Source: Gammaproteobacteria bacterium UBA3067 | Lineage (GTDB): Bacteria; Pseudomonadota; Gammaproteobacteria; Pseudomonadales; UBA3067 | Assembly (NCBI GenBank): GCA_002366835.1 | Contig: DFBZ01000018.1 | Coordinates: forward strand, 12,425 to 76,424 | Length of the DNA stretch: 64,000 nt | Direction of reading: 5' to 3' | Position numbers and translations under genes: made by a program | Part shown: piece by piece, positions 23,369 to 44,357 of the stretch | Numbering within the stretch: the first letter of the stretch is position 1 | How the letters are laid out: every line of letters begins with the position of its first letter | Notes under the pieces: generated by a model | Databases searched by the model: none | Told to the model about the DNA's origin: nothing | Seen by the model: only the letters and a program-made list of their open reading frames with translations

Positions 23369-23405
23369 CGTCCTTCCTCACTAGAGTGAAGAAGAGCCAG
23401 AACTT

Positions 23406-24929: not shown

Positions 24930-25034
24930 TTTATAGCCCTACGATAGAACATTTTCATTATTATTTTGTGAAACGACTGCAGCGAATTATCAACTAAAGT
25001 GCCGCTCACGCGGCACAAAAAAACACCGAGAATA

Positions 25035-25445: not shown

Positions 25446-25512
25446 AAGTTAAACTCTGCTTTAGTAAGACCGCTGCACAAGCGCAGATTTACGCCTATGC
25501 CAAGATCTCTAT

Positions 25513-27081: not shown

Positions 27082-27862
27082 TATCTTCTCTCATTCAGTT
27101 CAAATTAATCGCTACCCCCTGTATAGAAGTGCCACTAACACATATCCGCCTATGCTCCGAGGGCAAAGCAGAAGCTTACATAAATGCCTAGCATAGGCTT
27201 CAATATGTAGTTAGCGCCTATTCAGTTGTTCGCCTGACTAAAACTTATTCTTGAATAGAGCACTAAAAGTTAAGTAAGTGATGATTTCATTTATTATCAG
27301 CAGTTTGCTGACTGCCCACAAGTACGCAAAATGCCAATATAGAGCCGTATTTGCCAAAGTCACATAAAAGTGAAGCAAACTTCTATTTAGCATCGGGTTA
27401 CTGATTGCGCTAGGCACCCCTTGATATGTTTTCTATAACGAGCACCTCTTGAAGCCCTGTTAATGAGCGCACCGTAACGCTGCATTTCAATGGAAACTAA
27501 AGAGAGCGCACGCATATGCTGGAGGACACCCCTGTTTGAATCGAGCTATTTTGCGCGCATAGCGAAGAGCTTAAGTGCGTATCTGCTCGATAGAGGATAT
27601 TTTTTACTAACAGAAACCCTAAAACTAAAAGGCTTTTATTAATAGAAAAAACTGAATATAACAGAAAGGACTATTATTTAGCCGAATAGGGTTTTGATAT
27701 TGAATACAACGCCCCAAAATTTGGGCGAAAGAACTAGAATAAGAATTTATGACAAGTAGGCAGGCTGAAACTTATATATTTAAAGAAAAAAGAAGCGCAA
27801 GAAGGTAGCTCGCATCCTTACGCTCTACCTCCCTATACCACTAAAAATATCGACCTACATTT

Positions 27863-28315
27863 TCATATCCAGCGCCGTACCTCAGTTTTGTAGCGCAAAT
27901 ATTCCTCACCAAAGATAGGCTCTAGTATGCGCTCCTCTGGCATTATTTGATATTTCGTGAGTAGTAAAACGAATGCTGGCAGAAGTAAGAAGCCTGAAAA
28001 AGCCCCCAGATAAAAACACCAACCCGTCAGAATAAAAACCATTCCTAGATACATAGGGTTGCGCGTAAAACGATATAAACGATCTGTCACCAACTTGTTT
28101 GCATTTTCTGGCTTTAAGGGATTAATGGTGGTTTTCGATTTTACAAAACCTATAAATGACCAGCCATCAAACAGGAGGCCAATGGCCATCAACAATATCC
28201 CCACAATTTCGAAAAAGCTGCTCTCCCATGCAAAGAAGGGTGCATTATTTTTTAGCAGCCACATTGATAGGAGAAATGCAGCCATATAAATAGGCGGTGG
28301 TATTTTTAATTCCAT
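27863..28315 (-). CDS. isoprenylcysteine carboxyl methyltransferase (ICMT)-family membrane methyltransferase
   Basis: 'YRFTRNPMYLG' and C-terminal 'EERILEPIFGEEYLRYKTEVRRWI' are typical of the ICMT/PEMT family. The start was chosen at 'MELKIPPPIY'; the ORF track starts at 28420. Confidence 0.65.
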   Translation of the reverse strand: MELKIPPPIYMAAFLLSMWLLKNNAPFFAWESSFFEIVGILLMAIGLLFDGWSFIGFVKSKTTINPLKPENANKLVTDRLYRFTRNPMYLGMVFILTGWCFYLGAFSGFLLLPAFVLLLTKYQIMPEERILEPIFGEEYLRYKTEVRRWI

Positions 28316-28671
28316 GGAAGTCGCTTTTTGCTGTATCTCGGATGTTGGCATATTGAAAATTGTTATGAGCTTATAATGAATAGGAATTAATAGGGTAGTC
28401 CAAATTTTTGCGCGATACAATGCTTTTATCTTTTATGTATCTACGCCAAGCGCATCCAGACCAAGAAGGCTTGGCCCAACTCAGGTTGCCGTTGAAACAA
28501 AGAACCAAGCCCTTCCAATGAAAAGCCCCATGAAAATAGGGTCAAACCAACAAGCAATAACCTGAGAAAATATTTGAGGCAATCAACTTAGCCAGAGCAG
28601 CTCTGAATACTCCATAAACTTACACTTCACACTCAGAGCGCCCTAAGCTAATCAATATTTAATGTAGCGCG

Positions 28672-29121
28672 CTAGTAACTTAATGTCTGCACATCATCCT
28701 CCATTAACCTTGATAACGTCGTACTTGAACCACCAATCTTAATACCCTTTAACATGTCAGCCTTATCCACACCGTTGCCTTTCAAGCACATTGGGCAGAC
28801 ATATATCTCACCCCCAGCGCTCATAAATTTATTCATAAGGTCATGAACGGTTTCGCCACGCAACTTTGCCATACCGGCAATAGGAAAACTGCTATCGACA
28901 TAACGTGTGGCACCAAGACTAATGTTAACGAGAACAGGCACCTTATGTATATTTCTCACCATCGTTCCAACGGTAAATGCACGCCTAACCTTAAACAGGT
29001 CGTCACTCGATAAGTCAATAAATAGGCCTTTGCTATCAGCCATCACAGAACCCGAAACAACCATCAGGCATAACACAAAAACAGCAGAAGTTTTTTTGAT
29101 CATATTATTCATAAAAATCAA
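28672..29121 (-). CDS. exported DsrE/DsrF-like fold protein with CPMC motif
   Basis: Signal peptide 'VFVLCLMVVSGSVMA'. The pattern 'GLFIDLSSDD', 'VLVNISLGATRY', 'GGEIYVCPMCLKGNG' and 'IKIGGSST' resembles DsrE-like proteins. Confidence 0.45.
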   Translation of the reverse strand: MIFMNNMIKKTSAVFVLCLMVVSGSVMADSKGLFIDLSSDDLFKVRRAFTVGTMVRNIHKVPVLVNISLGATRYVDSSFPIAGMAKLRGETVHDLMNKFMSAGGEIYVCPMCLKGNGVDKADMLKGIKIGGSSTTLSRLMEDDVQTLSY

Positions 29122-29132
29122 CCCTTATTTAA

Positions 29133-29585
29133 TTATTGCTTAAACTGTGCATGACACGAAACACAGTAAGTCATGGTATTTCCCAAGGCAGCTAACGAGT
29201 TTTTCATATCCCCTTTAGACAGAACCTCACCTAGCTCATCGGCACTTTTGTGAAAACCAATGCCCGTCTTTTTGAAGACTTCATTCTCAAAGCGATTACA
29301 CATTGATTCCATTCCACCCGTTAAGCCCAATTTCTAATGGGCAATTTGCGATGCTCCTTCAAAGTTTTCTTTTCCCAGCTGCACAACGATCTCTTGAACT
29401 GCTGCCAGATGAGCACGCATATTTTTCAGCTGGTGCAGCTTCATCGCGGGCGGCAAGTTTAAGGAAGTTCTATTGTCTGCGCTGTGTTCACCATGATACA
29501 TCGCGTGATGCTTCTTCTCATCTTTTGCTGTGACCACCCCAGCCATCAATAAAAGCAAACCCTCGCCCACGTTTCTTAGCTTCAT
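29133..29585 (-). pseudogene. class II (cytochrome c'-like) c-type cytochrome interrupted by an in-frame TAG
   Basis: Two ORFs (29334-29597 and 29133-29330) are in the same frame and separated by a TAG at 29334-29336 (...QIAH * KLGLTGG...). The joined product is ~150 aa, with a signal peptide and a C-terminal heme motif 'CVSCH' five residues from the end, as in four-helix-bundle class II cytochromes c. Confidence 0.55.
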
Positions 29586-29598
29586 TGTTAGATTCACT

Positions 29599-29630
29599 CC
29601 AAGTCAGTAGAGTTCAAACAGCCTGCTAAG
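29599..29630. repeat. solo terminal fragment of the ~150-bp MITE-like element
   Basis: 'ccaagtcagtagagttcaaacagcctgctaag' versus 'ccaagtcagtagaatttcaacagcctgttaag' at 56546-56577, and versus the reverse complement of the 59214 end. Confidence 0.6.
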
Positions 29631-29806
29631 ACCTCTCTGATTAATCATCGCAAGGCCCCTTTTTCATATAGAGAATAACCCTACATGACTTTTACTTTAT
29701 ACTTGGGGATGAACCTTTGTAATTGATAAAACGCAATTTGAAAAAGTAAGCAGTGAGGCAAATTGTCGCAGTCAAAGCTATCTTTTCTGGGGAGATTTAA
29801 TGCTCT

Positions 29807-30508
29807 TTATTGAACTAATGAGCGAAGTGATCTTTCATCGGCCAAAGCCTGATTTGTACCCAATACACGAAGAATTCCCTCACTTCGCAAACGCGCAATA
29901 ATTCTACTTGCTGTTTCGGTAGTAATGGCCAGCATGGCTCCCATATCTTCACGGGACGGCAAATAAAACTCGTCTTTCTTGCTCAGGGATGCCAAATATA
30001 GTAGCAAATGAACAACACGAGCCTGCGCCGACCCGCTTGAAAGTTCTTCAATCCAAAAGTCGGCATCCATAGCCACCTTGGACCAACGAGCCATTAGTTG
30101 CCGATACAGGCGTGGGCTGCGTTGACTTATACTTTCAATCTCAACGATAGGGATCCTACAAACCAGGGCAGTATCCAAAACCTCGGCATAGTGTGCATAG
30201 GGTTGATTATCAAGCGCCTCGATACCCACTAAATCACCCTGACTCAATAACCTTACAATTCGTTGTCGGCCATCGTCCGTGAACTTCACCAGCTTAATTA
30301 GGCCGCTACGTAAGGTATAAACATAGTCCGCTTGATCGCCAGCTTTAAATAGGTATTCGTTCGTTTTAAATTCCAGCTCGGTAATAGGATGATGGATAAG
30401 GTCGAAATCAGCTTTATTTAAGTCTGCAAACAACACCAGCTCTCGAATGCCGCATGACTCACACCTCCGCGCCTGCTGCCACGCCTCGTCAATCACTTCT
30501 ATTTTCAT
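29807..30508 (-). CDS. Crp/Fnr-family transcriptional regulator
   Basis: cNMP-binding-like beta-roll ('YVYTLRSGLIKLVKFTDDGRQRIVRLLSQGDLVG') and a C-terminal HTH ('SREDMGAMLAITTETASRIIARLRSEG'). There is an N-terminal 'CESC' pair. Confidence 0.8.
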   Translation of the reverse strand: MKIEVIDEAWQQARRCESCGIRELVLFADLNKADFDLIHHPITELEFKTNEYLFKAGDQADYVYTLRSGLIKLVKFTDDGRQRIVRLLSQGDLVGIEALDNQPYAHYAEVLDTALVCRIPIVEIESISQRSPRLYRQLMARWSKVAMDADFWIEELSSGSAQARVVHLLLYLASLSKKDEFYLPSREDMGAMLAITTETASRIIARLRSEGILRVLGTNQALADERSLRSLVQ

Positions 30509-30732
30509 AAATACTCCATCGAAGGCATTATTTCTTTTATTGCTCCCATTCCTCGTTACGCCTCGTGCTTAACACTACAGGAAAAAAAAATCGACCTAGC
30601 CGTATCGAGCTTTGCTTTGCGGCAGGTGCGGCACACTGAATACTTTTCAGCCAGCTTTATTCAGCAGAAGGAGCACCCCTTGAGGGAAATGATATGGGCT
30701 AAAGTCTTGTATCGAACACAAGATTTTACGAT

Positions 30733-31227
30733 TTACGGTTTAGGAGCGGAAGCAGATGTCCGCTCAAATACGGCCTGAATAAGCATTGCGTCACTACTTG
30801 CCCGATGGCGCTGCAGGGCCAACTCTTCCACCACTCGCGCGCGGGTGGGTTCCCAAACGTTAAGTTGTTGATCACTTAGAATTCTTCTTAAGGATTCGAC
30901 CTTAAAACCCTGCAACAGCTCTGCCTCATCGTAGAGCTTGCCAATCCAGCTGGCGTCGTAACTCCAGGCATCGCTATACACCGTTTGGCCAAGCAGGATG
31001 CGATTGAGGCACTCTGCCACCTCCCTGATGGGCTGCCCCTTTTCCATAAGCAATTCGCGACTAATGCCATGCAGTGATTCTGCTTTAGCATCCCAGTGAA
31101 CCCAGCCTTGTTCTGGCTTAATCAAATAACAGTGCGTAGTGCGATCACTTAATACAACACCAATTTCAATCGGGTAACTACCTAGCCCAAAACCCGAAGC
31201 CTCTACATCAATAATTACGGGAGCCAT
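30733..31227 (-). CDS. DEDDh-type 3'-5' exonuclease domain protein
   Basis: 'VIIDVEASGFG' (Exo I), 'SDAWSYDASW' (Exo II), 'HRASSDA' (Exo III, H-x4-D). Confidence 0.7.
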   Translation of the reverse strand: MAPVIIDVEASGFGLGSYPIEIGVVLSDRTTHCYLIKPEQGWVHWDAKAESLHGISRELLMEKGQPIREVAECLNRILLGQTVYSDAWSYDASWIGKLYDEAELLQGFKVESLRRILSDQQLNVWEPTRARVVEELALQRHRASSDAMLIQAVFERTSASAPKP

Positions 31228-31324: not shown

Positions 31325-33895
31325 TTATCTGCGTGGTGACTTCTTCGTGGTTTTGGAGGTGCTAGTAGCTTTGGAAGCACTGCCGGTTCTAGACGTATTT
31401 GTCGCTTTAGCGCTACCACTTCTCGATGCCTTGGCGCGCGGTTTACGCGCTGGTTGTTTTCTTTCTTTACTGGCAACCTCGCCTTTTTTTGCGGAACTGG
31501 CAGCAGTCTTTCTGCGTGGTTTTTTAGTGCTCTTTTTCTTGCTCTTATCGCTTGTCTTTGCGGTATTTGCTTTGCTAGAACGCGTAGACTTGCCGCCCTC
31601 CCCCTTAGGTTTAGAGCGCCGAGAAGGTCGCCTTCGTTCCTTGCTGGAACTGCTTCCCTCTAACTCAAAATCGATTTTACGGTCATCGAGATTTACCGCC
31701 GCAACACGCACTACCACAGGGTCCGCCAAACGAAACCGCCGCCCGCTGTGCTCACCCTCAAGACTGTGATTGGTGGCATTAAAGTGATAGTAGTCGTTCT
31801 CCAGATTGGAGATATGTACCAAGCCCTCTACATACACATCAGTCAGCTGGACGAAAAAACCAAAGCCCGTCACGGCGCTGATAATCCCTTCGTAGGTTTC
31901 ACCCACTCGATCCAGCATAAACTCACACTTCAGCCAATCGTCCACATCGCGGGTGGCGGCATCGGCTCGACGCTCTGAGTCGGACAAAAGCATACCGAGT
32001 TCGACCATCTCCTTGTCACCGTAGGGAAGATGCTGAGCTTTGGCCAGGCGCTCGGCCCCTTTCACCCTTTCTACATTCGTGGACTCAACACGGGAGCGAA
32101 TAAGGTAACGCAGCGCGCGGTGTAGTAATAAATCAGGGTAACGTCGAATGGGGGAAGTAAAGTGGGCATAGCTACTATAAGCCAAACCAAAATGTCCCTT
32201 GTTTTCTGGGCTATACACCGCCTGCTTCATGGATCGCAGCATTACGGTTTGCACCAACTCCTGCTCGGTGCTTCCCTTTAGCTCACTCAACAAACGTTGA
32301 TAATCTTCAGGGGCAGGTTTTGTTTTTCCTCCGAGAGAGCGCCCCATGCTGTTTAGGAATTCACGCAAGGCCGTCACCTTTTCTTCACCGGGTACTTCAT
32401 GTACGCGAAACAAACCCGGCAGGTTATGCTTCTCAAGGAAACGCGCTGCAGCAACGTTTGCACATAACATACATTCTTCGATGATCTTATGCGCATCGTT
32501 ACGGTGCACAGGCACGATTTTTTCAATCTTGCGGCTTTCACCAAAAACAATACGCGTTTCGGTGGTATCAAAATCAATGGCGCCACGCTGATCACGACTT
32601 TCACGCAACACGTGATACAAATTATGCAGCTCTTCAATGCCTGGGCGTATAGTCGGATACTGCGCATCAAAGCCACCTTTTTCTGCTTCACCACCCTCCA
32701 ACATTGCACCCACCTGGGTGTACGTGAGGCGCGCTTTAGAGTTCATCACCCCTTCATAAAATTTATAACGACTAAGACGACCGGCGGCACTGATGCGCAT
32801 TTCGCACACCATACATAAACGATCCACCTGGGGGTTTAGGGAGCATAAGCCATTGGATAAAACTTCCGGCAACATGGGAATAACCCGCTCAGGAAAATAC
32901 ACCGAGGTGCCCCGATGCACCGCCTCTTGGTCTAGCGCCGAGCCAGGAACAACATAGTGGGAAACATCGGCAATGGCCACCAACAGCCGCCAGCCACCGC
33001 TGCGGGTTTTTTCACAATACACCGCATCGTCAAAATCTCGCGCATCCTCGCCATCAATGGTAACCAGATTGAGATCACGCAAATCGACGCGCTTCTCTTT
33101 TGCAGCTTCCGGCACATCTTTACTATAGGATTTCATGTCCTTTACTACAGAACGAGGCCATTCATTGGGAATACCATGGGCACGAATCGCCACCTCAATT
33201 TCCATACCCGGAGCCATGTGTTCGCCCATTACCTCCTGAATCATCCCTCTGGGGGGTGAGCGAAAGGTGGGTTGATCTTCAATCTTCACCACAACAAATT
33301 GCCCGGGCTTGGCACCGCGTAAATCTTCCTTGTTGACCAAAATGGACTGAGTAAGGCGCTTATTATCCGGCAAAACAAAACAGGCACCCGCCTCACGCTG
33401 CAAACGCCCCACCACCTCTTGCGTGTTACGCTCAAGCACTTCAACGATCATCCCGTCTCGTCGCCCCCGACGATCAACACCCTTGACACGAGACAGCACC
33501 CGGTCGCCATCAAAAACACCGCGCATTTGCCCAGGGGATAGAAATAAATCAGCGCTGCCGTCATCCGGCACCATAAAACCAAAACCATCCCGATGCCCCA
33601 AAACCCTTCCCGGCACCAAATCCACCTTATCCACCGGTGCATAAGCGCCACGGCGCAGACAAATCACCTGGCCGTCACGCTCCATAGCCCGCAAGCGACG
33701 CCGAAGTGCTTCGAGCTGATCATCCGTCGTTAGCTTAAGTCCCTCGGCAATTTCCCGCTGCTGCTGAGGTGCGCCCGCTTTTTCCAGATGGGCAAGAATA
33801 AACTCCCTGCTCGGAATCGGGTTCTCATACTTTTTAGCCTCACGCTTGGCATGAGGGTCTTTCACACCAGAGTGGGAGGTTTTTGATTTTTTCAT
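31325..33895 (-). CDS. rnr: ribonuclease R
   Basis: RNB domain ('TIDGEDARDFDDAV', 'HFGLAYSSYAHFTSPIRRYPDLLLHR'), an S1 domain and a K/S/T-rich basic tail. The start was set to 'MKKSKTSH' (ATG 33895); the ORF track starts at 33970. Confidence 0.9.
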   Translation of the reverse strand: MKKSKTSHSGVKDPHAKREAKKYENPIPSREFILAHLEKAGAPQQQREIAEGLKLTTDDQLEALRRRLRAMERDGQVICLRRGAYAPVDKVDLVPGRVLGHRDGFGFMVPDDGSADLFLSPGQMRGVFDGDRVLSRVKGVDRRGRRDGMIVEVLERNTQEVVGRLQREAGACFVLPDNKRLTQSILVNKEDLRGAKPGQFVVVKIEDQPTFRSPPRGMIQEVMGEHMAPGMEIEVAIRAHGIPNEWPRSVVKDMKSYSKDVPEAAKEKRVDLRDLNLVTIDGEDARDFDDAVYCEKTRSGGWRLLVAIADVSHYVVPGSALDQEAVHRGTSVYFPERVIPMLPEVLSNGLCSLNPQVDRLCMVCEMRISAAGRLSRYKFYEGVMNSKARLTYTQVGAMLEGGEAEKGGFDAQYPTIRPGIEELHNLYHVLRESRDQRGAIDFDTTETRIVFGESRKIEKIVPVHRNDAHKIIEECMLCANVAAARFLEKHNLPGLFRVHEVPGEEKVTALREFLNSMGRSLGGKTKPAPEDYQRLLSELKGSTEQELVQTVMLRSMKQAVYSPENKGHFGLAYSSYAHFTSPIRRYPDLLLHRALRYLIRSRVESTNVERVKGAERLAKAQHLPYGDKEMVELGMLLSDSERRADAATRDVDDWLKCEFMLDRVGETYEGIISAVTGFGFFVQLTDVYVEGLVHISNLENDYYHFNATNHSLEGEHSGRRFRLADPVVVRVAAVNLDDRKIDFELEGSSSSKERRRPSRRSKPKGEGGKSTRSSKANTAKTSDKSKKKSTKKPRRKTAASSAKKGEVASKERKQPARKPRAKASRSGSAKATNTSRTGSASKATSTSKTTKKSPRR

Positions 33896-34091
33896 TTTTT
33901 CAAGCCTGAATAAGTGGGCATGGGGGAAATCAGTGAGCTGGCAGCAAATGACGCGCATGGGAAAGAGCATTCCATTCTACCCGCATTTCAATATCTTATA
34001 GGACACTATTAGCAATTAATGAAGGGAATTTGACAATTCAGCCCAAGATGCGTACATTTCGCCCGTTCCGACTTCGGGATAAGCACATCAC

Positions 34092-34178
34092 GCCCAGGTG
34101 GTGAAATTGGTAGACACGCTAGCTTCAGGTGCTAGTGATCGCAAGGTCGTGGAGGTTCAAGTCCTCTCCTGGGCACCA
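34092..34178 (+). tRNA. tRNA-Leu (anticodon CAG), CCA encoded
   Basis: Acceptor stem GCCCAGG/CCTGGGC, anticodon loop 'cTTCAGGt', long variable arm 'gtgatcgcaaggtc', T-arm 'GGAGGTTCAAGTCCTCT', 3' ACCA. Confidence 0.9.
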
Positions 34179-34839
34179 CTATTAAGTCATTGTTTCTATT
34201 TGATATATAGCCTAGCAGAAGCACTGAAAACTTTCCCTCTATTTTTGTATTTTTGGCTCTGTGACCAAATTGTGCCCATATCGTGACCAAACCCCTCGGT
34301 TTGCTATGGGCAAATCACATGATGTTCATACCTTAAAACTGTTCTCCAGAAGCTCCTCTCAGGCACCATCCAAATCGCTAATGCTAACCACAATGGTGGT
34401 CGATGAGCCGTTAAAGGCTGTGACTGGCAGGTGGCTGCAATCGGCTGATCGCTGACCGATAGATTTAAGCTATTAGCAGCGACTCCTATGACATCGCTGT
34501 AGGTGATTTCAATCGACTATTGAAAAGAATAGCTTGCACGACATATCGATGTCAGACTCAAAAGAAACTGCGGCCGTTACGTTACCGCCCTGACCATGGC
34601 TACCAGCTAAAAGATAAGGCTAAAGTTAAGCGGCATATTGATTAATATCATCCATGCATCAAGTTATAACCACAGCTAAACATTCTAATGAAAATGCAAA
34701 TATTAAACTCAACCAGGAGGTATGGTTTTGACGACATTTTTTCTAAAGCGTCGCTAGCGGGCACCCATAGTTATTTCCATCACCACCAGGTTTTCGAGGC
34801 GTCCTTAAATTTATTTTTTAATATATTAATTCAATACTT

Positions 34840-34871
34840 GACCCGTTTTTATCGTGACCCGTTTTTATCGT
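34840..34871. repeat. 16-bp tandem duplication 'gacccgtttttatcgt' x2 (member of the TTGACCC/GTGACC repeat family)
   Basis: Direct reading: 34840-34855 equals 34856-34871. It is preceded by 'atacttgaccc'. Related 'tatcgtgacc' occurs at 34279-34288 and 'tgtgacc' at 34260-34266. Confidence 0.8.
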
Positions 34872-35144
34872 GGAAGGCAACCTGACGACGGGAGAGGGTC
34901 TTCGCCCAGGTTTCCCCTCTTTTTACAACAACCCCGACAATAAGAAAAGGAGGGATAGGAAGATAAACACTCGCCATCACATTGGCAGACAGTGAAAGAT
35001 TACGCCCTTCACTGGGAACGGTGCTGGTACTATTTTCGACATCGATGGTTTTGGGTTTTCCAACGATGTAGGTGGCTTAAGTTTTTTCGTTTAATATATA
35101 AGCTCACAACTTGCCCCCTTTTTCTTATTTCTTCTAAAGCGTCA

Positions 35145-35190
35145 ATATGATACTTGACCCCTTATCCTATATGATACTTGACCCCTTATC
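35145..35190. repeat. 24-bp tandem repeat 'atatgatacttgaccccttatc(ct)' x2
   Basis: Direct reading: 35145-35166 is repeated at 35169-35190. It is preceded by 'ttctaaagcgtcaat'. Confidence 0.8.
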
Positions 35191-35331
35191 TTCTTTTAAA
35201 AAGAATTGCCGAGGACAGACAGAGCGCCGAGATAAACCGGCAAAAGATTGGAGGTGCAATCCTTCTACTTAGTAAGGAGTAATTACCCGTTATGACCTTG
35301 AGTCATGAGCCGCTGCCCATAAGGTTAGGGG

Positions 35332-35658
35332 TTAAGCGTTGACAGAGGAATGTGCAGGCTCTGTATTGAGTTCCGAAATCATAAAGAGAGAGCGTTGACC
35401 TTGTTGTCTGAAAGGGAAAACAAAATAGCCATCCAGCATTATAGTGAACTTACTGGCTGGCTCTCCGGAGTCGTAGACCTGGTTGCATGTACGAACGTCT
35501 TTTGTGCGGAACTCGGGAGATCTTGTTATTGGCCGTTGCTGTTCCGGTAACGACAGTTTTGGGGTGAAGCCCAAAACTGGATAATAGGAAGTTGGACAAG
35601 ATAATAGTAGTGAAAACGTGACCCCCATAATTAGAGAACCCTGACTCTGCTTTATCAT
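35332..35658 (-). CDS. hypothetical ORF (108 aa), doubtful
   Basis: ORF only. No motif. Lies inside the decayed island. Confidence 0.2.
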   Translation of the reverse strand: MIKQSQGSLIMGVTFSLLLSCPTSYYPVLGFTPKLSLPEQQRPITRSPEFRTKDVRTCNQVYDSGEPASKFTIMLDGYFVFPFRQQGQRSLFMISELNTEPAHSSVNA

Positions 35659-35813
35659 GTGCCTATCCTCATAATCTGTATGAACTCTCTAGATTTATAG
35701 CGTTATTCCCGTGCTTGACCTCAAATTCCCCTTAAGGCTAAATACGCAAAGTTTCCACGCAGTATTATCTGCTGGGGTGTAACTTTTTGATTATGTGAGT
35801 GGTATTTCTAAAG

Positions 35814-36608
35814 ATGGACACATCAAACTTACAGCAGGTTTTTTTGCGCGTCCGCTCAAATAAGGTTTTTGAGCTATTTGTTATTTTTGTCATTGTTTTT
35901 TCGGCGCTTGTAGTGGGTGCCAAAACATATAACCTGCCAGATTCATTTTTTATTTTAACCAAATGGATGGATCTGGGAATCACGGCGATTTTTCTTACAG
36001 AAATAACAATTCGTTTCTTTGGAGAGAAGCACAAAAGCCAGTTTTTTAAAAATGGCTGGAATGTATTTGATACCCTGATTGTAATAGTGAGCCTTATTCC
36101 AATAGATGACTCGGAAATAGCTTTGGTTGGGCGGCTTGTGCGTGTTTTCCGCGTTTTAAGAATGGTTTCTATTATCCCTGAATTGCGCCTGCTATTGAAT
36201 TCATTGCTGAAGGCACTACCACAACTTGGTTATGTTTTACTTTTAATGTTTATTATTTTTTATATTTACGCCGCCTTCGGTGCGTTGTTTTTTGCCAAGA
36301 TTAATGCTGAGCTTTGGGGTGATATAGGTATATCCATGCTGACATTGTTTCGAGTTATGACTTTTGAGGACTGGACCGATGTAATGTATGAAACCATGTC
36401 GGTCTATCCACTGAGTTGGATATTTTATTTAAGCTTTATTTTCCTTACGGCATTTGCCTTTCTGAATATGGTTATTGGTATCGTCGTTAATGTATTGGAC
36501 GAAGAGAGGGCTGAAATGGAGCAGCAGGAAAACCCGCAGCCCAGCTTGCAAGAGATCCAGGAGCAGCTTAACAGGCTGGAAGATCGTCTGGCAGGCCTGG
36601 CGCGCTGA
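35814..36608 (+). CDS. bacterial single-domain voltage-gated cation channel (BacNav/NaChBac family) with acidic filter 'TFEDWTD'
   Basis: Six TM segments. S4 'LVGRLVRVFRVLRMV' has Arg at every third position. Pore 'LTLFRVMTFEDWTDVMY'. C-terminal coiled-coil 'LQEIQEQLNRLEDRLAGLAR'. ATG at 35814; the ORF track begins at GTG 35799. Confidence 0.8.
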   Translation: MDTSNLQQVFLRVRSNKVFELFVIFVIVFSALVVGAKTYNLPDSFFILTKWMDLGITAIFLTEITIRFFGEKHKSQFFKNGWNVFDTLIVIVSLIPIDDSEIALVGRLVRVFRVLRMVSIIPELRLLLNSLLKALPQLGYVLLLMFIIFYIYAAFGALFFAKINAELWGDIGISMLTLFRVMTFEDWTDVMYETMSVYPLSWIFYLSFIFLTAFAFLNMVIGIVVNVLDEERAEMEQQENPQPSLQEIQEQLNRLEDRLAGLAR

Positions 36609-36808
36609 CGTCAAGGTAGCCTCTCTCTGCACCTTGATTCCACAACTAAATCTTAACTTGCTAGAAAGTTAGATAACTAAAGATAAATCATTAGTTGCAG
36701 TTATTATGGGCTTTCGGTCTGACTGGGATACGATGAATGGTTGGCTCATTGCTTTCAACCGTTGTGGACTCAATTCTCATTGCAATGTCTAAGAAGAAAG
36801 AGGAAAAA

Positions 36809-36833
36809 GGGTCAAGTATCATTTTGACGCTTT
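36809..36833. repeat. inverted copy of the 'aaagcgtcaa-atgatacttgaccc' repeat
   Basis: The reverse complement of 'gggtcaagtatcattttgacgcttt' is 'aaagcgtcaaaatgatacttgaccc', which matches 35137-35160 'aaagcgtcaatatgatacttgaccc' with one mismatch. Confidence 0.75.
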
Positions 36834-37039
36834 TTCCTCGGTCAATCCTCTACCATCAAATACTCAGCCTTCTTAAGCAACTTCCGATCATTATCCATTA
36901 ACACTTTCAGTTTACCAATAGTCGTCGGAATGCTGCCTGTTAAATGCTTCAGCAATACTCACAAGCGACTGACCACCTACCACCTGACTAAGATACATCG
37001 CAACTGATATGCTCACCTCATCAATACTATAGGTGTTCA

Positions 37040-37326: not shown

Positions 37327-37460
37327 GCCGTGGAACTATTAAAGCAGACGGCGAAAAATTACTACTGGAGGGCATGCACTATATACGTCCTTTTGGTGGA
37401 CTAAAGATTCTATACCAATGAAAATTCATTGAACAATATCTGGGGCACTTTTCACGCGAT
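37327..37460 (+). pseudogene. excisionase-like (Xis/AlpA-type) gene remnant, frameshifted
   Basis: Across two frames: 'AVELLKQTAKNYYW' / 'EGMHYIRPFGGLKILYQ*' / 'KFIEQYLG'. This resembles the C-terminal half of small excisionase-like DNA-binding proteins. Confidence 0.3.
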
Positions 37461-37503
37461 ACCAATAGTCTGAGCATCCCTATGGCAAGCGGAGATATTT
37501 GTC

Positions 37504-37860
37504 ATGGGTAAGGTACGCGCCAGAGCTGGTAGCAAGCGCCTCTACATCGATTACCGGCACCAGGGCATTCGATGTAGAGAGCAGGCATTACTTGATGACT
37601 CCCCTGCTAACAGGAAAAACTCCATAAGCTACTGGCTCGAATGGAAGCTGATATGTTGTTGGGTAGCTTTGATTACGCCCGGTATTTCCCTAACTCCAAA
37701 CGAGCTAAGCAATTCGGCAGTATCAATCAACGTAAAATAGAAGGCTTTGTCGGTACGCCAAGCTTTTCTGATTTCACCGAAACCTGGCTTGTTGAGATGA
37801 GTGCCCAGTGGCGCAATTCCTACACAAAGAGCCCCAAAGCTCACACCCCCCCTAAAGAGA
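37504..37860 (+). pseudogene. tyrosine integrase N-terminal fragment (arm-binding DUF3596-type), frameshifted and truncated
   Basis: 'MGKVRARAGSKRLYIDYRHQGIRCREQALLDDSPANRKN' continues in another frame as 'MEADMLLGSFDYARYFPNSKRAKQF...FSDFTETWLVEMSAQWRNSYTKS'. No catalytic domain follows. Confidence 0.6.
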
Positions 37861-37979: not shown

Positions 37980-39389
37980 ATGAAAAAGACACACATCACT
38001 CAACTTCCACATAGAGGGAGACAGCAACGGCCTCTTATACAGTTAACTGGCATCCTGCTTTTACTACCCGCCTTTGTTTTTAGCGCTCCAGAATTCATTA
38101 ATGTTTCAGTGACTTTAAACGACCTTCCTGAGCAAGGTCGTGCCTTAGATGACACTGGCACCAGCTCTAACTCTAATCTTTCTCCATCAGAGGCAACAGC
38201 CGCTGTTTTCTCTGCACTGTGCCCCGCTATCGCCAGCCTAGAGCGCACCAGCGCCCAGGATAATTTATTCCAACTATGTACTGCCTTGGATGAAGCAAGC
38301 ACTGCCGATCAAAACCGTATTTATGACCAAATCTCCAGCAAAGCCAGCTCCGCCAATGCCAATATAAGCAACCTTGAGCAATCTGACACACAAACCAATG
38401 CCAACCTTTCCAGCAACGGTATCAATTCAACACCCAATGAAACACGCGCATCAGCCTACCGCTATCAAAGCCAAATTCCGCTTTATAGTTTTCTTGGCTC
38501 ATCCGGCAAGAGTGACTGGGATTATTTTTACAAACGCACCAATACATTTACTAGCTTTGACAGCAGCTTTTCAGAGCGCGACGAAACCGTCGATGACATC
38601 GGCTTTGAAAGTATGCATTTGAAGTTTCTGTTTGGCGCAGACTATCGGATTAATAACACCTTCTTGGTGGGCGCAGCCATTACCTTGGGACGCTCGGAAA
38701 CCGAACTAGCCGACAATCGCGGTAACGCCGATTCTACTGCTATAAACTGGACACTCTTTGGCCTTCACCAAGTCAATGCGCGCTGGTCTGTTAATGGTAC
38801 CTTTATGCTGCAGAGCACTGATTATAACAATACCCGTGAGATATCCATCAACCTTCCTACGCTCGTCAAAAACTATAGCCTGAGCACTGAGTCCTCTACG
38901 GAAAAAACTGGCTTATTCATTGGAAGCGATTACCAGTGGTCGCTCCCCTATGCATTTGAATTAAGCCTTCTTAACCAGTTCAATGCCGTGCGCACAGAAA
39001 CCGAGAACCATAGCGAATCAGGCAACACCGGATTTGAACTATCCACCTATGCCCAAGAAATTAACAGTACAACGATAAATAACGGGGTCGAGATACGTAA
39101 ACCCTTCGCCCAATCCTGGGGGGTACTTATTCCTCAACTCAACATCCACTGGGTACATCAGCTTGCAGACCAATCCAGAGATGTCAAAGCGACCTTTATT
39201 CATGATCCTCAGGCCAACCTGATCGCCTATAGCACCGACGAGGGCGACTCCGATTACTTCACCGCCCAGCTTGGTGCTGTTTTCATCATGCCTAATGGTA
39301 TCAATGGTTTTGCGCAACTCAGCTCAGTACTGGGCTACGAATATTACAGCAACACCACTCTTTCCATCGGGCTTCGCGGAGAACTCTGA
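37980..39389 (+). CDS. autotransporter-type outer-membrane beta-barrel protein with short helical passenger
   Basis: Signal peptide ('LTGILLLLPAFVFSAPE'). The passenger has a paired-Cys helical motif 'AVFSALCPAIASL...NLFQLCTALDEASTADQNRIYDQIS', as in small autotransporters. The C-terminal ~270 aa show an alternating beta-strand pattern. Confidence 0.6.
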   Translation: MKKTHITQLPHRGRQQRPLIQLTGILLLLPAFVFSAPEFINVSVTLNDLPEQGRALDDTGTSSNSNLSPSEATAAVFSALCPAIASLERTSAQDNLFQLCTALDEASTADQNRIYDQISSKASSANANISNLEQSDTQTNANLSSNGINSTPNETRASAYRYQSQIPLYSFLGSSGKSDWDYFYKRTNTFTSFDSSFSERDETVDDIGFESMHLKFLFGADYRINNTFLVGAAITLGRSETELADNRGNADSTAINWTLFGLHQVNARWSVNGTFMLQSTDYNNTREISINLPTLVKNYSLSTESSTEKTGLFIGSDYQWSLPYAFELSLLNQFNAVRTETENHSESGNTGFELSTYAQEINSTTINNGVEIRKPFAQSWGVLIPQLNIHWVHQLADQSRDVKATFIHDPQANLIAYSTDEGDSDYFTAQLGAVFIMPNGINGFAQLSSVLGYEYYSNTTLSIGLRGEL

Positions 39390-39390
39390 C

Positions 39391-40920
39391 ATGTGCAAAC
39401 GAAACTACCAAAACCGCAGCATACAGCTTTTCATATACGTACTCGCTACACTCAGCCTATTTGCCTGCAACGAGCCAAGCCCCAGCAACTCAAATAAACA
39501 ATATCTCGCTGTAGAAGTTAAGGCGCAGAAAACCACTTCCGTAGAAGAAAGCTTCCCTGTTGAAATAGACCGAATTAGTGTCGAAGTCGTTAATGACCAA
39601 GATGAGGTAATCGCCTCAAGTAGTACTGCAGATAACAGCGCCTCTTTTAACTTATCCGTTCCCCGTGACACTCCCTTATCTGTCATTGCATACGCCTACA
39701 GTGGCAATGAGCTACTTTATAAGGGAGTCGACAAGCTCGACCCCCTCACCTTAAACAGCCAAACTACCGTCGAAATAACCTTACAATCACAGGTGACGGT
39801 ATTAGCACCCCCTGACCCGCAAACTGTGACCGATAGCGGGGCCATAGAGCTCAGCCCGCTTATTGATGTTCGGGGGTTAAACGACTCCAGCCTCGCTTAC
39901 GCCATTAATGGCGTAGAAGGCGGCAATGAGACCCTCGGCCTTATTTCAACCTACGGCACTTACACGCCTCCCCCTCATCTACTAGAAACACTGCAAGTAC
40001 AACTCAGCGCCACCCCCATCGCAGCCCCCTCCTTTGCAGAGATTATTGAGGTGGTCATTGAACCCACGCCCATTGATCTGAATTGGTTTACTGATGAGGG
40101 CCTCAGAAGCTGTGTGGACCAACACGAAGCTGAACTCGTTGCAGCACTTACAACCCTCGACTGCTCCCATCGAACGACGGGTCTCAATATCCTATCCATG
40201 CAAGGTTTGGAAAACCTTACTGCATTAAAAGAACTCAATATCAGCAACCAATATATAGAAAGTATTCCGCCCCTAGGTAGTTTGACACTTTTGAACAAAC
40301 TCACCCTAAGCCTCAACCTTCTTGGCGATATAAAAGGCTTGGAATCACTTCCCTCATTGCAAAGTTTAGATTTAAGCTGGAACCCAGGCTTTTATTCGCT
40401 CGATGGTGACAATCCCCTCGACCCACTAATTCCACTAGCCGCCCTTACCTCACTTAAGGAACTGGATCTTTCTTGTGTATTTAATATGACTGAAAACTCT
40501 GTTAGTGCACTACGCAAAAAACTGCCCAATACAGAGATACTCTTCAAATGTTCATATTTATACCCGGAAACCATTTCGATACAGGCGAATGAGTACTTCG
40601 ACTTTAAAGGTTTTATTTCGACAACAGTGCTCAGCGATATTACAAATAAATTAGAACTTTTATCGAGCGACAAAAAAATAGCAGCACAGATTGATTCAAA
40701 TGACAGTGATGTAATTTATTCAGTAGATGAGATCGTGGGGGGTAATGAGAAAATAGGAACAATCTCGAAAACGGGTAAAGATGCAGGCATCTTTTTCTCA
40801 CCCAGAGTTAATAGCAATCAAATCGTAACACTCAGTGCCAGCCTAGAAGAGGCCCCAACATTTAAGGTTGAACTTAATATCGAGATTAAGCCCATTATTA
40901 ACCCACTATCTACATATTGA
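39391..40920 (+). CDS. leucine-rich-repeat (LRR) lipoprotein with flanking Ig-like/beta regions
   Basis: Lipobox 'LATLSLFAC'. LRR block 'LENLTALKELNISNQYIESIPPLGSLTLLNKLTLSLNLLGDIKGLESLPSLQSLDLSWN...LTSLKELDLS'. A repeated motif 'INGVEGGNETLGLISTYGTYTPP' / 'VDEIVGGNEKIGTISKTGKDAGIFFSP' is present. The ATG lies 1 nt after the upstream OMP stop; the ORF-track start at 39271 overlaps that gene. Confidence 0.7.
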   Translation: MCKRNYQNRSIQLFIYVLATLSLFACNEPSPSNSNKQYLAVEVKAQKTTSVEESFPVEIDRISVEVVNDQDEVIASSSTADNSASFNLSVPRDTPLSVIAYAYSGNELLYKGVDKLDPLTLNSQTTVEITLQSQVTVLAPPDPQTVTDSGAIELSPLIDVRGLNDSSLAYAINGVEGGNETLGLISTYGTYTPPPHLLETLQVQLSATPIAAPSFAEIIEVVIEPTPIDLNWFTDEGLRSCVDQHEAELVAALTTLDCSHRTTGLNILSMQGLENLTALKELNISNQYIESIPPLGSLTLLNKLTLSLNLLGDIKGLESLPSLQSLDLSWNPGFYSLDGDNPLDPLIPLAALTSLKELDLSCVFNMTENSVSALRKKLPNTEILFKCSYLYPETISIQANEYFDFKGFISTTVLSDITNKLELLSSDKKIAAQIDSNDSDVIYSVDEIVGGNEKIGTISKTGKDAGIFFSPRVNSNQIVTLSASLEEAPTFKVELNIEIKPIINPLSTY

Positions 40921-40952: not shown

Positions 40953-41053
40953 GCTGCATTGGCTACGACTGGCACTCCTTTTACTGCGCCTTTGTGGAGG
41001 AAAAAAAGAAATAGCTACGCCCAGCCCTTTTACGTTTTAACGACGCATTTAGT
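40953..41053. repeat. ~100-bp near-identical copy of the spacer between immunity paralogues 2 and 3 (43219-43320)
   Basis: 'gcattggctacgactggcactcc-ttttactgcgcctttgtggaggaaaaaaagaaatagctacgcccagcccttttacgttttaacgacgcatttagtcc' versus the same string at 43219-43320, with a few mismatches. Confidence 0.85.
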
Positions 41054-42083
41054 CCTCTATAGTCATTTTTTCTAGAACGACTGCTTCTTTCTCATTGCTT
41101 AACTGGGCGGCAAATTTTTGAATACCATTAATTTTTCGTGTATGAAACTCAAGTTTCAAAGGGGTTAATCGGTCCGGAGATAATTTTTTAAAGGCCGCAA
41201 ATGTTTCTGCTTCGTCGAAATTGAAGACAGGGTACTCGGTATCACCGCCTGGGTTATTCCAAATATAAAAAACCCGTCGAGGAACGGGACGCAGGGCACT
41301 GGCAGTCTCTTCATCCAGCGGGTAGCGAAAACAATCTTCTTCGCCATTGAAATAGTGAATACTTTCCACGAAAGGAGGAGGATTATCAGCAATAATCACA
41401 GGCTGCCAAGGATAATGCACGCGGTAGCTGTCCCATAGTTCGAAGGGGATGCCGTTTTGTTTTAGGGTATTGATATTTTCGATGCCAATTGCATCCTTCA
41501 AGCTTTTGTTAATAAACATTTCCCGAGTAATCTCCGGGTTATCAATGATCCGCGCCCAGGGAATATCTTCCGTTTTTTCAGCTTTACCAAAAAAGACTTC
41601 GGTCGTTTTATTCACGCCAAGCAGCCAGACAGCAACACTGCCCCCCGGTGTCACTCCCGCCATAATCCGCTTATAAGTAGTATGCCCCTTTTCTTTGGGG
41701 CTGTAATAACCTTCATTGAACAGGCGTACGATGGTGTCGTAGGGTAGGTCAAACTCACCTTTATAGAAGACATTTTCGGTATAAGAGAAAAACTCAATCT
41801 CCATACGACTGGGTAAAGACTTTAGATCGGGCCCCACAACGTGGGAAGAAACCATGCTTCCCCAGCCGTAATCAATGCGCTTTGAGTTGGGAATATAAAG
41901 GGAATAGCCATCGGGAGCGATAAAAAAGCCACTGATGATTCTCATGGGAAAGTTTTTGGGGGCACTTTCCGTTGCCAGCCAGTCAAATTTAATCACAGGA
42001 GCACCTCCACAGGCGGATAACAAGGAACCAAAGACAAAAGTACCTGCTAAGGCTAAGCGTTTTTTTACTAATTTAAAGCTCAT
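41049..42083 (-). CDS. lipoprotein, putative Tle1-cognate immunity paralogue 1
   Basis: Lipobox 'GSLLSACGG'. ~80-85% identical by eye to the two upstream paralogues. Downstream of a DUF2235 lipase in a vgrG island. Confidence 0.55.
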   Translation of the reverse strand: MSFKLVKKRLALAGTFVFGSLLSACGGAPVIKFDWLATESAPKNFPMRIISGFFIAPDGYSLYIPNSKRIDYGWGSMVSSHVVGPDLKSLPSRMEIEFFSYTENVFYKGEFDLPYDTIVRLFNEGYYSPKEKGHTTYKRIMAGVTPGGSVAVWLLGVNKTTEVFFGKAEKTEDIPWARIIDNPEITREMFINKSLKDAIGIENINTLKQNGIPFELWDSYRVHYPWQPVIIADNPPPFVESIHYFNGEEDCFRYPLDEETASALRPVPRRVFYIWNNPGGDTEYPVFNFDEAETFAAFKKLSPDRLTPLKLEFHTRKINGIQKFAAQLSNEKEAVVLEKMTIED

Positions 42084-42178
42084 AATAACTGTTGTTGGTA
42101 TCCCTATTGCCCGCTGTGAAAATGCGCGTGAAACTGCAGCTAAGTACCAACAATCAACACGCCCTATTTTCTTATATT

Positions 42179-43219
42179 TTAACGTCTCGCCTTGCCCATA
42201 TACATTTTCTCTAAAACCACCACTTCTTCTTCATTACTTAACTGAACGGCATATTTTCGGACACCATCAATTTTTCGCGTGTAAAACTCCAGTTTTAAGG
42301 GGGTTAAACCATCGGGGCACAGCCTTTTAAAGGCTGCAAACATTTCTGCTTCGTCAAAGTTGAACTTGGGGTAACTGACTTTACCATCGGGATTGTCCCA
42401 AATATAATAAAGCCTTCTAGGGATGGGGCGTAGTGTACTGGGAGCGGGTTCATCCAGCGGATAACGTAAGTTGTCTTCCTCACCATTGAAATAGAATATC
42501 CCATGAATAAAGGGCGGGGGATTATCAGCAATAATCACAGGCTGCCAAGGGTAATGCACGCGGTAGCTGTCCCATAGTTCGAAGGGGATGCCGTTTTGTT
42601 TTAGGGCATTGATATTTTCAATACTAACCGCATCATTTAAAACTTCGTGAACAAACTCCTCTCGTGTAATCTCTGAGCCGTCATAAATTCGCGTCCAGGG
42701 AATATCCTGCGTTCTATCAGCTTTACCAAAAAAGACTTCGGTCTTCTTATTAGTCCCAAGCAACCAAACAGCGACACTACCCCCTGGTGCCACCCCGACC
42801 ATAATCCGTCCATAAGTAGTACGCCCCTCCTCTTTAGAGCTGTAATAGCCGTCATTAAACAGGCGTACGATGGTGTCGTAGGGTAAGTCAAACTCACCCT
42901 TATAGAAGACATTTTCAGTATAAGAAAAAAACTCGATCTCCATACGACTGGGTAAAGATTTTAGATCGGACCCCACGACGTGGGAGGAAATCATGCTTCC
43001 CCAACCGGAATGAATGGTTTTTTCGTTCGGGATATAAAGGGAATAACCATCGGGAGAGATAAAACTGCCACGGACAATTTCCATGGGGTAGTTTTTTGGC
43101 GCACTTTCCGTTGCCAGCCAGTCAAATTTAGTCACAGGGGTGACTCCACAGGCGGACAGCAAAGGGGCGAAGACCAACGTGCCTGCCAAGGATAAACATC
43201 TTTTTAAGGTTTTAAGCAT
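42179..43219 (-). CDS. lipoprotein, putative Tle1-cognate immunity paralogue 2
   Basis: Lipobox 'APLLSACGV'. Collinear with paralogues 1 and 3. The start was chosen at 'MLKTLKR'; the ORF track starts at 43240. Confidence 0.55.
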   Translation of the reverse strand: MLKTLKRCLSLAGTLVFAPLLSACGVTPVTKFDWLATESAPKNYPMEIVRGSFISPDGYSLYIPNEKTIHSGWGSMISSHVVGSDLKSLPSRMEIEFFSYTENVFYKGEFDLPYDTIVRLFNDGYYSSKEEGRTTYGRIMVGVAPGGSVAVWLLGTNKKTEVFFGKADRTQDIPWTRIYDGSEITREEFVHEVLNDAVSIENINALKQNGIPFELWDSYRVHYPWQPVIIADNPPPFIHGIFYFNGEEDNLRYPLDEPAPSTLRPIPRRLYYIWDNPDGKVSYPKFNFDEAEMFAAFKRLCPDGLTPLKLEFYTRKIDGVRKYAVQLSNEEEVVVLEKMYMGKARR

Positions 43220-43313
43220 TGCATTGGCCACGACTGGCACTCCCTTTACTGCGCCTTTATGGAGGAAAAAAAGAAATAGCTACGCCCAGCCCTTTTACGT
43301 TTTAACGACGCAT

Positions 43314-44357
43314 TTAGTCCTCTATAGTCATTTTTTCTAGAACAACTGCTTCTTTCTCATTGCTTAACTGGGCGGAAAATTTTTGAATACCATTAATTTT
43401 GCGTGTATGAAACTCAAGTTTCAAAGGGGTTAATCGGTCCGGAGATAGTTTTTTAAAGGCCGCAAATATTTCTGCTTCGTCGAAATTGAAGACAGGGTAC
43501 TCAGTATCACCGTCTGGGTTATTCCAAATATAATAAACCTCTCGAGGAATGGGGCGCAGAGCGCTTGCAGTTGCTTCATCCAGCGGATAGCGAAAAGAAT
43601 CTTCTTCACCGTTGAAATAATAGATACTTTCCACGAAGGGGGGAGGGTTATCAGCAACAACCACCGGCTGCCAAGGGTAGTGCACGCGGTAACTGTCCCA
43701 TAGTTTAAAGGGAATACCATTTTGTTTTAAGCCATTGATATTTTCAATGCCAATGGCGTCCTCTAAAACTCTGTGAATAAACGTCTCACGTGTGATTTCT
43801 GAGCCATCATAGATTCGCGTCCAGGGAATATCCTGCGTTTTTTCAGCTTTGCCGAAAAAGACTTCTGTCGTTTTGTTCACGCCAGACAGCCAGACGGCGA
43901 CCCCTCCCCCCGGCGTCACCCCAGCCATGATGCTCATATAGGTGGTATGCCCCTCTTCTTTGGAGCTGTAATAGCCGTCATTAAACAGGCGTACAATAGT
44001 ATCGTAGGGTAAGTCAAACTCACCCTTATAGAAGACATTTTCAGTATAAGAAAAAAACTCAATCTCCATACGACTGGGTAAAGATTTTAGATCGGGCCCC
44101 ACCACGTGGGAAGAAACCATGTCCCCCCAACCGTAATGAATAGTTTTTTCGTTCGGGATATAAAGAGAATAGCCATCAGGGGCGATAAAGTAGCCGCTCA
44201 CAATTTCCATGGGATAGTTTTTTGGTGCACTTTCGGTAGCGAACCAGTCAAATTTAGTCACAGGGGTGCCTCCGCAGGCGGATAATAAGGGGCCAAGAAC
44301 AAAGGTCGATACCAAAGCCAAGCCTTGTTTTAGGTTTTTAAATGGGTGATTAACCAC
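43314..44357 (-). CDS. lipoprotein, putative Tle1-cognate immunity paralogue 3
   Basis: Lipobox 'GPLLSACGG'. The GTG start overlaps the Tle1 stop by 8 nt (GTGGTTAA). Confidence 0.55.
   Translation of the reverse strand: MVNHPFKNLKQGLALVSTFVLGPLLSACGGTPVTKFDWFATESAPKNYPMEIVSGYFIAPDGYSLYIPNEKTIHYGWGDMVSSHVVGPDLKSLPSRMEIEFFSYTENVFYKGEFDLPYDTIVRLFNDGYYSSKEEGHTTYMSIMAGVTPGGGVAVWLSGVNKTTEVFFGKAEKTQDIPWTRIYDGSEITRETFIHRVLEDAIGIENINGLKQNGIPFKLWDSYRVHYPWQPVVVADNPPPFVESIYYFNGEEDSFRYPLDEATASALRPIPREVYYIWNNPDGDTEYPVFNFDEAEIFAAFKKLSPDRLTPLKLEFHTRKINGIQKFSAQLSNEKEAVVLEKMTIED

Follow-up and report, generated by a model that had tools for sequence, protein, structure and literature searches.

Mutagenesis of NaChBac by Yue et al. 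(2002; PMC2229573) gave permeability ratios (PCa/PNa) of 0.15 for the wild-type selectivity filter LESWAS, 17 for LESWAD, 35 for LEDWAS, 73 for LEDWAD and 133 for LDDWAD, and homologues with the filter FEDWTD were already proposed in that study as candidate native Ca2+ channels. Here, we describe the gene for one such homologue, found in a 64,000-nucleotide stretch of DNA (the window) from Gammaproteobacteria bacterium UBA3067 (assembly GCA_002366835.1, contig DFBZ01000018.1, positions 12,425 to 76,424 of the forward strand). An initial annotation, made from the letters alone, had described an island-borne BacNav-family channel with a filter bearing the acidic residues that make NaChBac Ca2+-selective, and its account of the NaChBac mutants was accurate (73 for LEDWAD against 0.15). 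We propose, with as much doubt as confidence, that the gene encodes a working and selectively maintained cation channel whose selectivity resembles that of NavPp.

NavPp belongs to the 'ancestor-like BacNav' (AnclNav) group, which was defined by Shimomura et al. (2020; PMC7041947), who expressed four of its members. CavMr (TLEGWVD) was Ca2+-selective, with a PCa/PNa of 218. NavPp (TLEDWTD) was permeable to Na+ and subject to a low-affinity block by extracellular Ca2+, some of which passed through the channel along with Na+. The AnclNavs of Teredinibacter turnerae and Halomonas elongata, both of which carry exactly TFEDWTD in the sequence file of that study, yielded no current that could be detected in Sf9 cells. 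NavPp gained Ca2+ selectivity through the D4G mutation, while G4D in CavMr lowered PCa/PNa from 218 to 7.7, a drop of ∼28-fold, and Ca2+ selectivity in the AnclNav background was attributed to Gly, not Asp, at position 4. The NavPp variants with T6S (TLEDWSD) or T6A (TLEDWAD), whose filters confer Ca2+ selectivity on NavAb and NaChBac, were still blocked by Ca2+ and did not conduct it. Discrimination among monovalent ions was lost in CavMr G4D, V6T and G4S and in NavPp T6V, with PCa/PNa values of 1.7-12 (PMC7041947).

A Phe at filter position 2 is known in some BacNavs and AnclNavs, and the NavAb L176F mutant acquires no divalent block (Irie et al., 2023; PMC10349818). A 2023 'beacon' review (PMC10120453) proposed Ca2+ selectivity for those one-domain channels that have Gly or Asp at HFS+1. 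What the literature leads one to expect of the TFEDWTD filter is therefore contradictory. No electrophysiology of any FEDWTD channel published after 2020 turned up in our literature search.

The channel gene of the window is an uninterrupted open reading frame encoding 264 aa, starting with ATG at 35814 and with an in-frame alternative GTG at 35799. The protein matched the Pfam family Ion_trans (PF00520) over residues 16-233 (E = 1.4e-45) and carries S1-S6 in a single polypeptide of the size of single-domain BacNavs (∼260-290 aa). S4 has the sequence GRLVRVFRVLR, in which residues 107, 110, 113 and 116 are Arg, and the filter, read straight from the DNA, is T183-F-E-D-W-T-D189. At the C-terminus (SLQEIQEQLNRLEDRLAGLAR), hydrophobic residues are spaced 3-4-3-4-3, giving a heptad pattern over residues 245-264. 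An AlphaFold2 (AF2) model made from 49 homologues (mean pLDDT 77, ∼90 in the pore domain) contained helices S1-S4, the S4-S5 linker with S5, P1, P2 and S6, and a C-terminal helix (residues 245-263) that stands apart from the rest. Foldseek matched this model to NavRh, NavMs, NavAb, NaChBac and CavAb, the best matches being NavRh, NavMs and NavAb. By sequence, the top bacterial solved structure was NavRh (4DXW; E = 2.9e-60), followed among PDB matches by NaChBac, NavMs and NavAb as well as single repeats from the Cav and Nav channels of eukaryotes. The gene is intact, and its product almost certainly belongs to the BacNav superfamily. The canonical six-transmembrane layout and the four S4 Arg residues of the initial annotation are thus confirmed. 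Its C-terminal coiled coil agrees with the heptad spacing and the modelled helix, which is predicted to form a tetramerisation bundle.

A MAFFT alignment with characterised channels placed TFEDWTD column for column against TLESWAS of NaChBac and TLESWSM of NavAb, together with TLEDWTD and TLEGWVD. Glu185 occupies filter position 3, Asp186 position 4 and Asp189 position 7. The acidic residues therefore lie at the filter positions at which they had been placed, and the displacement that could have undone this claim did not occur. The segment conforms to the BacNav P-loop pattern T-x-E/D-x-W between the P1 and P2 helices, and more narrowly to the AnclNav pattern T-L/F-E-D/G-W-x-D.

The channel was 60.5% identical to the AnclNav of T. 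turnerae T7901 (YP_003073405) and 51% identical to that of H. elongata (YP_003896792), both measured along the entire protein. Identities fell to 36-38% with the short-turret TLEDWTD proteins of Mariprofundus and Nitrosococcus, 34-35% with NavPp and CavMr, and 29-35% with canonical BacNavs. In a neighbour-joining tree of the Shimomura 2020 sequence set (200 bootstraps; a distance-based method only), the channel grouped with the T. turnerae protein (99.5%) and these two with the H. elongata protein (100%), and the trio fell within the AnclNav group (84%), separate from the Bacillus and NavAb-like groups. Judged by these identities and this tree, the channel belongs to the AnclNav group and, within it, to a TFEDWTD subclade, as an ordinary member of a known and abundant clade.

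We then surveyed the filter among homologues, as the initial annotation had suggested. A search of 5.8 billion proteins returned 7,778 homologues at E ≤ 1e-10, and all of the 120 best (65-99% identical) contained exactly TFEDWTD. A scan with one genome per species found a relative of the channel in at least 577 species-level genomes. The exact motif was present at 86 of 89 channel loci examined, whose hosts include Oleispira, Neptuniibacter, Marinobacterium, Amphritea, Alteromonas, Gilvimarinus, Vibrio, Methylophaga, Halieaceae and Endozoicomonadaceae, and it was retained down to 34-37% identity among 50%-identity cluster representatives. Sister lineages carried TLEDWTD, TLEGWTD, TFEGWAD and TLSSWEQ. 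An alignment of 49 sequences contained ∼90 invariant columns, which included all filter residues, the four S4 Arg residues, and F60, E63, R67 and D86. TFEDWTD is therefore the signature of a very large marine gammaproteobacterial clade and not a singular variant. The view of this filter as a special native variant consequently did not hold.

The channel gene was also present in the related metagenomic strains L001-L006 and L088. Over its 795 nt it differed from these sibling strains at 12 sites, of which 11 are third codon positions, and the protein differed by just two amino acids (I102V and Q246H). The gene has stayed at the locus in no fewer than four strain contexts, amid surroundings that were reshuffled. 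The gene is alive and under purifying selection.

In the mechanism that we propose, the protein would be the subunit of a homotetrameric cation channel activated by depolarisation. The four S4 Arg residues would cross the conserved charge-transfer centre (F60, E63, R67 and D86) and thereby open the S6 gate, and a C-terminal four-helix coiled coil would keep the tetramer together. Permeating ions would traverse a short filter lined by 12 carboxylates, contributed by four copies each of Glu185, Asp186 and Asp189. Na+ would be conducted while divalent ions bind in the filter, with Ca2+ acting chiefly as a low-affinity blocker or modulator and not as a selectively permeant ion. We give an even chance, or slightly less, to a channel that conducts Na+ and in whose filter Ca2+ binds or blocks, and favour this reading because NavPp is the nearest functional natural analogue and belongs to the same phylogenetic group. 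The assignment is an extrapolation, since the two closest homologues that have been tested were silent. Several points weigh against it. A TFEDWTD channel has yet to give a recorded current, the T. turnerae and H. elongata proteins having been silent in Sf9 cells (PMC7041947). The analogy may fail because the channel is only ∼34% identical to NavPp overall, and because it lacks the long Cys-containing S5-S6 turret of NavPp and CavMr. The same charge pattern in a canonical background, that of NaChBac LEDWAD, gave a PCa/PNa of 73 (PMC2229573), and the rule of thumb for Asp at HFS+1 predicts Ca2+ selectivity in one-domain channels (PMC10120453). Finally, a promoter and terminator scan around the channel gene found nothing above chance expectation.

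Some of these points would be accounted for by a native Ca2+-selective channel, in which the 12 carboxylates form a high-affinity multi-ion Ca2+ site, like that of the engineered CavAb and CaChBac, that admits Ca2+ from seawater. This agrees with the rise of PCa/PNa above the wild-type value in NaChBac LESWAD, LEDWAS and LEDWAD and with the proposal that Yue et al. made for FEDWTD homologues (PMC2229573), with the Gly or Asp rule of the review (PMC10120453), and with the fact that the three acidic residues are strictly invariant throughout a huge clade, which shows their importance. In the AnclNav background, however, TLEDWTD, TLEDWSD and TLEDWAD are blocked by Ca2+ without Ca2+ conduction, apart from the Ca2+ that accompanies Na+ through NavPp, and Gly at position 4 is needed, as the ∼28-fold loss in CavMr G4D illustrates (PMC7041947); the channel has neither the Gly4 nor the disulfide-bearing turret of CavMr. 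The evidence from the AnclNav group leans against Ca2+ selectivity, which we regard as unlikely for this channel. It is similarly improbable, in our view, that the channel is poorly selective, passing Na+, K+ and divalent ions alike and serving in depolarisation or in osmotic or ionic signalling. AnclNav mutants of intermediate charge pattern do lose monovalent discrimination, with PCa/PNa between 1.7 and 12, and NavPp passes some Ca2+ alongside Na+, but none of the natural E-D-W-T-D channels has been shown to be non-selective and wild-type NavPp prefers Na+ (PMC7041947).

All three of these readings presuppose a functional gene. The open reading frame could instead be a silent or decaying passenger of a dead island, intact by chance and without function in its host, as might be suspected from the fragmentary state of every mobile-element gene nearby, the lack of a promoter that stands out in the scan and the missing heterologous current of two close homologues (PMC7041947). 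The full-length reading frame with every clade-invariant residue, the concentration of substitutions at third positions with just two amino-acid changes, and the retention of the gene through the reshuffling of at least four strain contexts make this highly improbable. A maintained AnclNav channel that conducts Na+ and is blocked or modulated by Ca2+ is the reading that we carry forward.

The features of the channel gene and of its surroundings are collected in Table 1. The tRNA-Leu lies ∼1.6 kb upstream of the channel gene, and the interval consists of non-coding debris with the intron fragment and 33-nt repeats. The group II intron fragment has neither a maturase open reading frame nor D5/D6. 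In sibling strain L002, homology omits window positions 34800-35133 and 35166-35662, and hence the intron fragment, while the 33-nt repeat is kept. The 28-aa piece in the degraded recombination module was found by tblastn with the 71-aa neighbour of the intact integrase of the more distant relative L092.

Table 1. Positions in the window of the channel gene, its functional elements and the adjoining island features.
Feature	Position	Strand	Evidence or remark
Channel gene, BacNav superfamily, AnclNav group, TFEDWTD subclade (by sequence)	35814..36608	+	Open reading frame, Pfam, PDB, identity, neighbour-joining tree, AF2
S4 gating charges R107, R110, R113, R116 (RLVRVFRVLR)	36132..36161	+	Sequence; invariant in 49-sequence alignment
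Selectivity filter T-F-E-D-W-T-D, residues 183-189	36360..36380	+	Sequence, alignment
C-terminal heptad-repeat helix, predicted tetramerisation bundle	36546..36605	+	Spacing in SLQEIQEQLNRLEDRLAGLAR, AF2 helix 245-263
rnr (RNase R)	31325-33970	-	Adjoins tRNA-Leu(CAG)
tRNA-Leu(CAG), integration hot spot	34092..34178	+	ARAGORN, Rfam
33-nt inverted repeat, left copy (Y1 element end)	35136..35168	+	Repeat search; tandem second copy 35169-35190
Group II intron D1-D4 fragment	35257..35480	+	Rfam RF02005, full-length match, 126.7 bits
33-nt inverted repeat, right copy, just 3' of channel gene	36801..36833	-	Repeat search
Y1 (IS200-like) transposase remnant, residues 223-286 (last 64 codons), frameshift	36842..37022	-	tblastn with intact L001 gene
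IS3-family OrfA fragment, 58 aa	37040..37216	+	Pfam HTH_Tnp_1, weak, 3e-4
Degraded recombination module: 28-aa piece of small open reading frame preceding the integrase, then integrase remnant	37353..37838	+	tblastn, Pfam
Tyrosine integrase residues 1-110, frameshift	37504-37838	+	Arm-DNA-bind_2 7.4e-8; tblastn with L092 integrase

The 33-nt motif (AAAGCGTCAATATGATACTTGACCCCTTATCCT) occurs in four copies in the window against 0.16 expected, and an inverted pair brackets the intron fragment and the channel gene. In L001, L003 and L004, the channel gene is followed immediately by an intact Y1 transposase gene with the same repeats on either side (L001 10997-12076). This transposase gene encodes 285 aa with the Pfam domain Y1_Tnp and a DnaA_C-like HTH. 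Because they bound an intact Y1_Tnp gene in the siblings, the repeats are the ends of an IS200-like element, which is unusual in having terminal inverted repeats. We considered a composite transposon carrying the channel gene between the 33-nt repeats and found no evidence for it, the repeats being ends of separate Y1 elements whose arrangement varies between strains.

The order rnr, tRNA-Leu, channel gene is conserved among the siblings, and the inserts differ. L088 has an old yellow enzyme (OYE) reductase gene and a TetR regulator gene between the tRNA and the channel gene. In L002 an intact IS3 element (HTH_Tnp_1 and rve) follows the channel gene at the place equivalent to that of the fragment in the window, and acyl-CoA dehydrogenase genes come after it. 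In L001 the channel gene is followed by the Y1 element, an integrase fragment and a type I restriction-modification system. The tRNA-Leu also adjoins rnr in L088, L090, L092 and L093. L092 (RNase R 74% identical) carries an intact homologous Arm-DNA-bind_2 integrase gene 850 bp from the tRNA, while in L090, a congener whose RNase R is 82% identical, genes for MMPL and SBF proteins lie beside the tRNA and the site has no channel gene. As these distant relatives carry other inserts there, the rnr-tRNA-Leu junction is an integration hot spot. The nearest named matches to the RNase R of the window came from metagenome-assembled genomes labelled 'Pseudomonadales bacterium' (82-85% identity).

In the siblings, the final 16 nt of the tRNA recur ∼300 bp downstream (L088 7379-7426), and this second copy resembles an att site. 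With as many as 3 mismatches allowed, a tRNA 3'-end repeat (attR) marking the far border was sought in all 64 kb of the window, and no second copy was found. Nor did synteny with L090 resume to the right of the island, where no homologue of its flanking genes was present up to 64000; a weak histidine kinase-response regulator (HK-RR) match of an L090 flanking gene fell at 12169-12738, on the opposite side of the tRNA. The channel gene has a GC content of 40.5% against 45.9% for the window, and its GC at third codon positions (43.8%) is within the range of its neighbours (38-52%). The rnr-tRNA-Leu(CAG) hot spot holds a decayed, mosaic integrative island, in which the channel gene lies and whose right border is undefined.

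To see whether this setting is general, we inspected 80 orthologue loci from other genera. No conserved operon partner that might hint at function was found among them, the commonest neighbour family occurring at 11 of the 80. Synteny was local to clades, as with tolC-nudF-cpdA-parE in Alteromonas-like genomes, and several loci lay in housekeeping neighbourhoods. A tRNA was present within 3 kb at one locus; an L092-type integrase was found within 10 kb at none of the 80, and a Y1 transposase occurred at one and an IS3 element at one. The idea that the channel family is generally island-borne was rejected on the single tRNA-near locus and the lack of L092-type integrases. The island placement is peculiar to the lineage of the window, and mobility is no trait of the family.

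The initial annotation had called the channel island-borne and the only surviving cargo of a mobile element. The former stands for this locus, given the tRNA-Leu, the integrase, IS3 and Y1 remnants, the intron piece and the L090 site without the channel gene, and does not extend to a right border, an attR or mobility across the family. The latter is not supported: the siblings keep the gene with other neighbours, the right border is outside the window, and plausible cargo lies past the integrase remnant.

Several other features of the window were noted. Beyond the integrase remnant lie genes for an autotransporter, a leucine-rich repeat (LRR) protein, three DUF2931 paralogues and a Tle1-like type VI secretion system (T6SS) effector. 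The autotransporter beta-domain gene (37980-39389) overlaps the longest LRR open reading frame (39271-40920) by ∼120 nt within the segment 37980-40920 (+), and the true start of the LRR gene is probably further downstream. On the opposite strand (41049-45747, -), the gene for the Tle1-like T6SS phospholipase effector (44350-45747) is followed by the three DUF2931 paralogues in tandem (41049-44357), with 73-92% identity between their DNA copies; the arrangement looks like an effector with an expanded array of immunity genes. A second variable segment, of ∼7.6 kb (∼23100-30750), lies across rnr from the island. It is missing from L090, where it would fall between the DUF2914 gene and the exonuclease-like gene that adjoins rnr; the window copy encodes a GMC oxidoreductase, a PEMT-like methyltransferase, a DsrE-like protein and a Crp/Fnr regulator. 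RNase R itself has a C-terminal tail of ∼130 residues rich in Lys, Ser, Thr and Ala (31325-31800, -), and the length of this tail varies among relatives, with proteins of 806 to 1068 aa.

What FEDWTD channels select for was asked explicitly as early as 2002, and the question outlasted the failed expression attempt of 2020. With a clade of such size and an invariant filter, an answer would tell what voltage-gated signalling serves in many marine bacteria, Na+ or Ca2+ entry, and would put to the test whether Ca2+ selectivity is set by the charge of the filter or by the context of the backbone. Should the TFEDWTD clade be Ca2+-selective, voltage-gated Ca2+ entry would be widespread in marine bacteria, through thousands of proteins. 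To this question the window adds one orthologue, 60% identical to one already tried, and gives no new handle on selectivity; beyond that, it shows only a channel kept under purifying selection amid reshuffled island surroundings.

Among named channels, the closest in kind are the AnclNavs of T. turnerae and H. elongata, which share with the channel of the window TFEDWTD, a short turret, four S4 Arg residues and a C-terminal coiled coil. Unlike these two, the channel comes from an uncultured Pseudomonadales-like gammaproteobacterium, in which its gene sits in a tRNA-Leu island. The silence of both proteins in Sf9 cells means that they offer no functional reference. NavPp, from Plesiocystis pacifica and of the same AnclNav group, is the sole functional natural channel with a near-identical filter and such a charge pattern. 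The two filters differ at position 2 only, where NavPp has Leu and the channel Phe, and over P1-filter-P2 the channel (LFRVMTFEDWTDVMY) and NavPp (LFRVVTLEDWTDVMY) differ at two positions. For the P1-filter-P2 segment, an identity of 13 out of 16 residues was counted. This segment of the channel bears the Arg typical of AnclNavs where canonical channels have Gln. A Cys-containing insertion of ∼25 residues after P2 is common to NavPp and CavMr and does not occur in the channel.

CavMr, from Meiothermus ruber, is the only native prokaryotic Cav described. It is likewise a single-domain AnclNav and shares Glu3 and Asp7 with the channel, but its filter TLEGWVD has Gly at position 4 where the channel has Asp (Asp186) and Val at position 6 where the channel has Thr, and the two proteins are 34% identical. 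The marks of a native Cav of the CavMr type, Gly at position 4 and an extended Cys-containing loop after P2, were thus absent from the channel. The engineered channels CaChBac (NaChBac LDDWAD) and CavAb (NavAb TLDDWSD) share with it Asp at positions 4 and 7. At position 3 they have Asp where the channel has Glu185, so that its charge pattern is that of LEDWAD and not LDDWAD, and they were built on canonical backbones 29-35% identical to the channel. That the TFEDWTD clade might be nature's counterpart of CavAb and CaChBac, a native Ca2+ channel of high charge density operating without the Gly4 mechanism of CavMr, is a reading to which we give a poor chance. The closest solved structure is that of NavRh from alphaproteobacterium HIMB114 (4DXW; ∼44% identity, TM-score 0.65-0.78), whose filter TLSSWET has no Glu at position 3 and carries its acidic residue at position 6.

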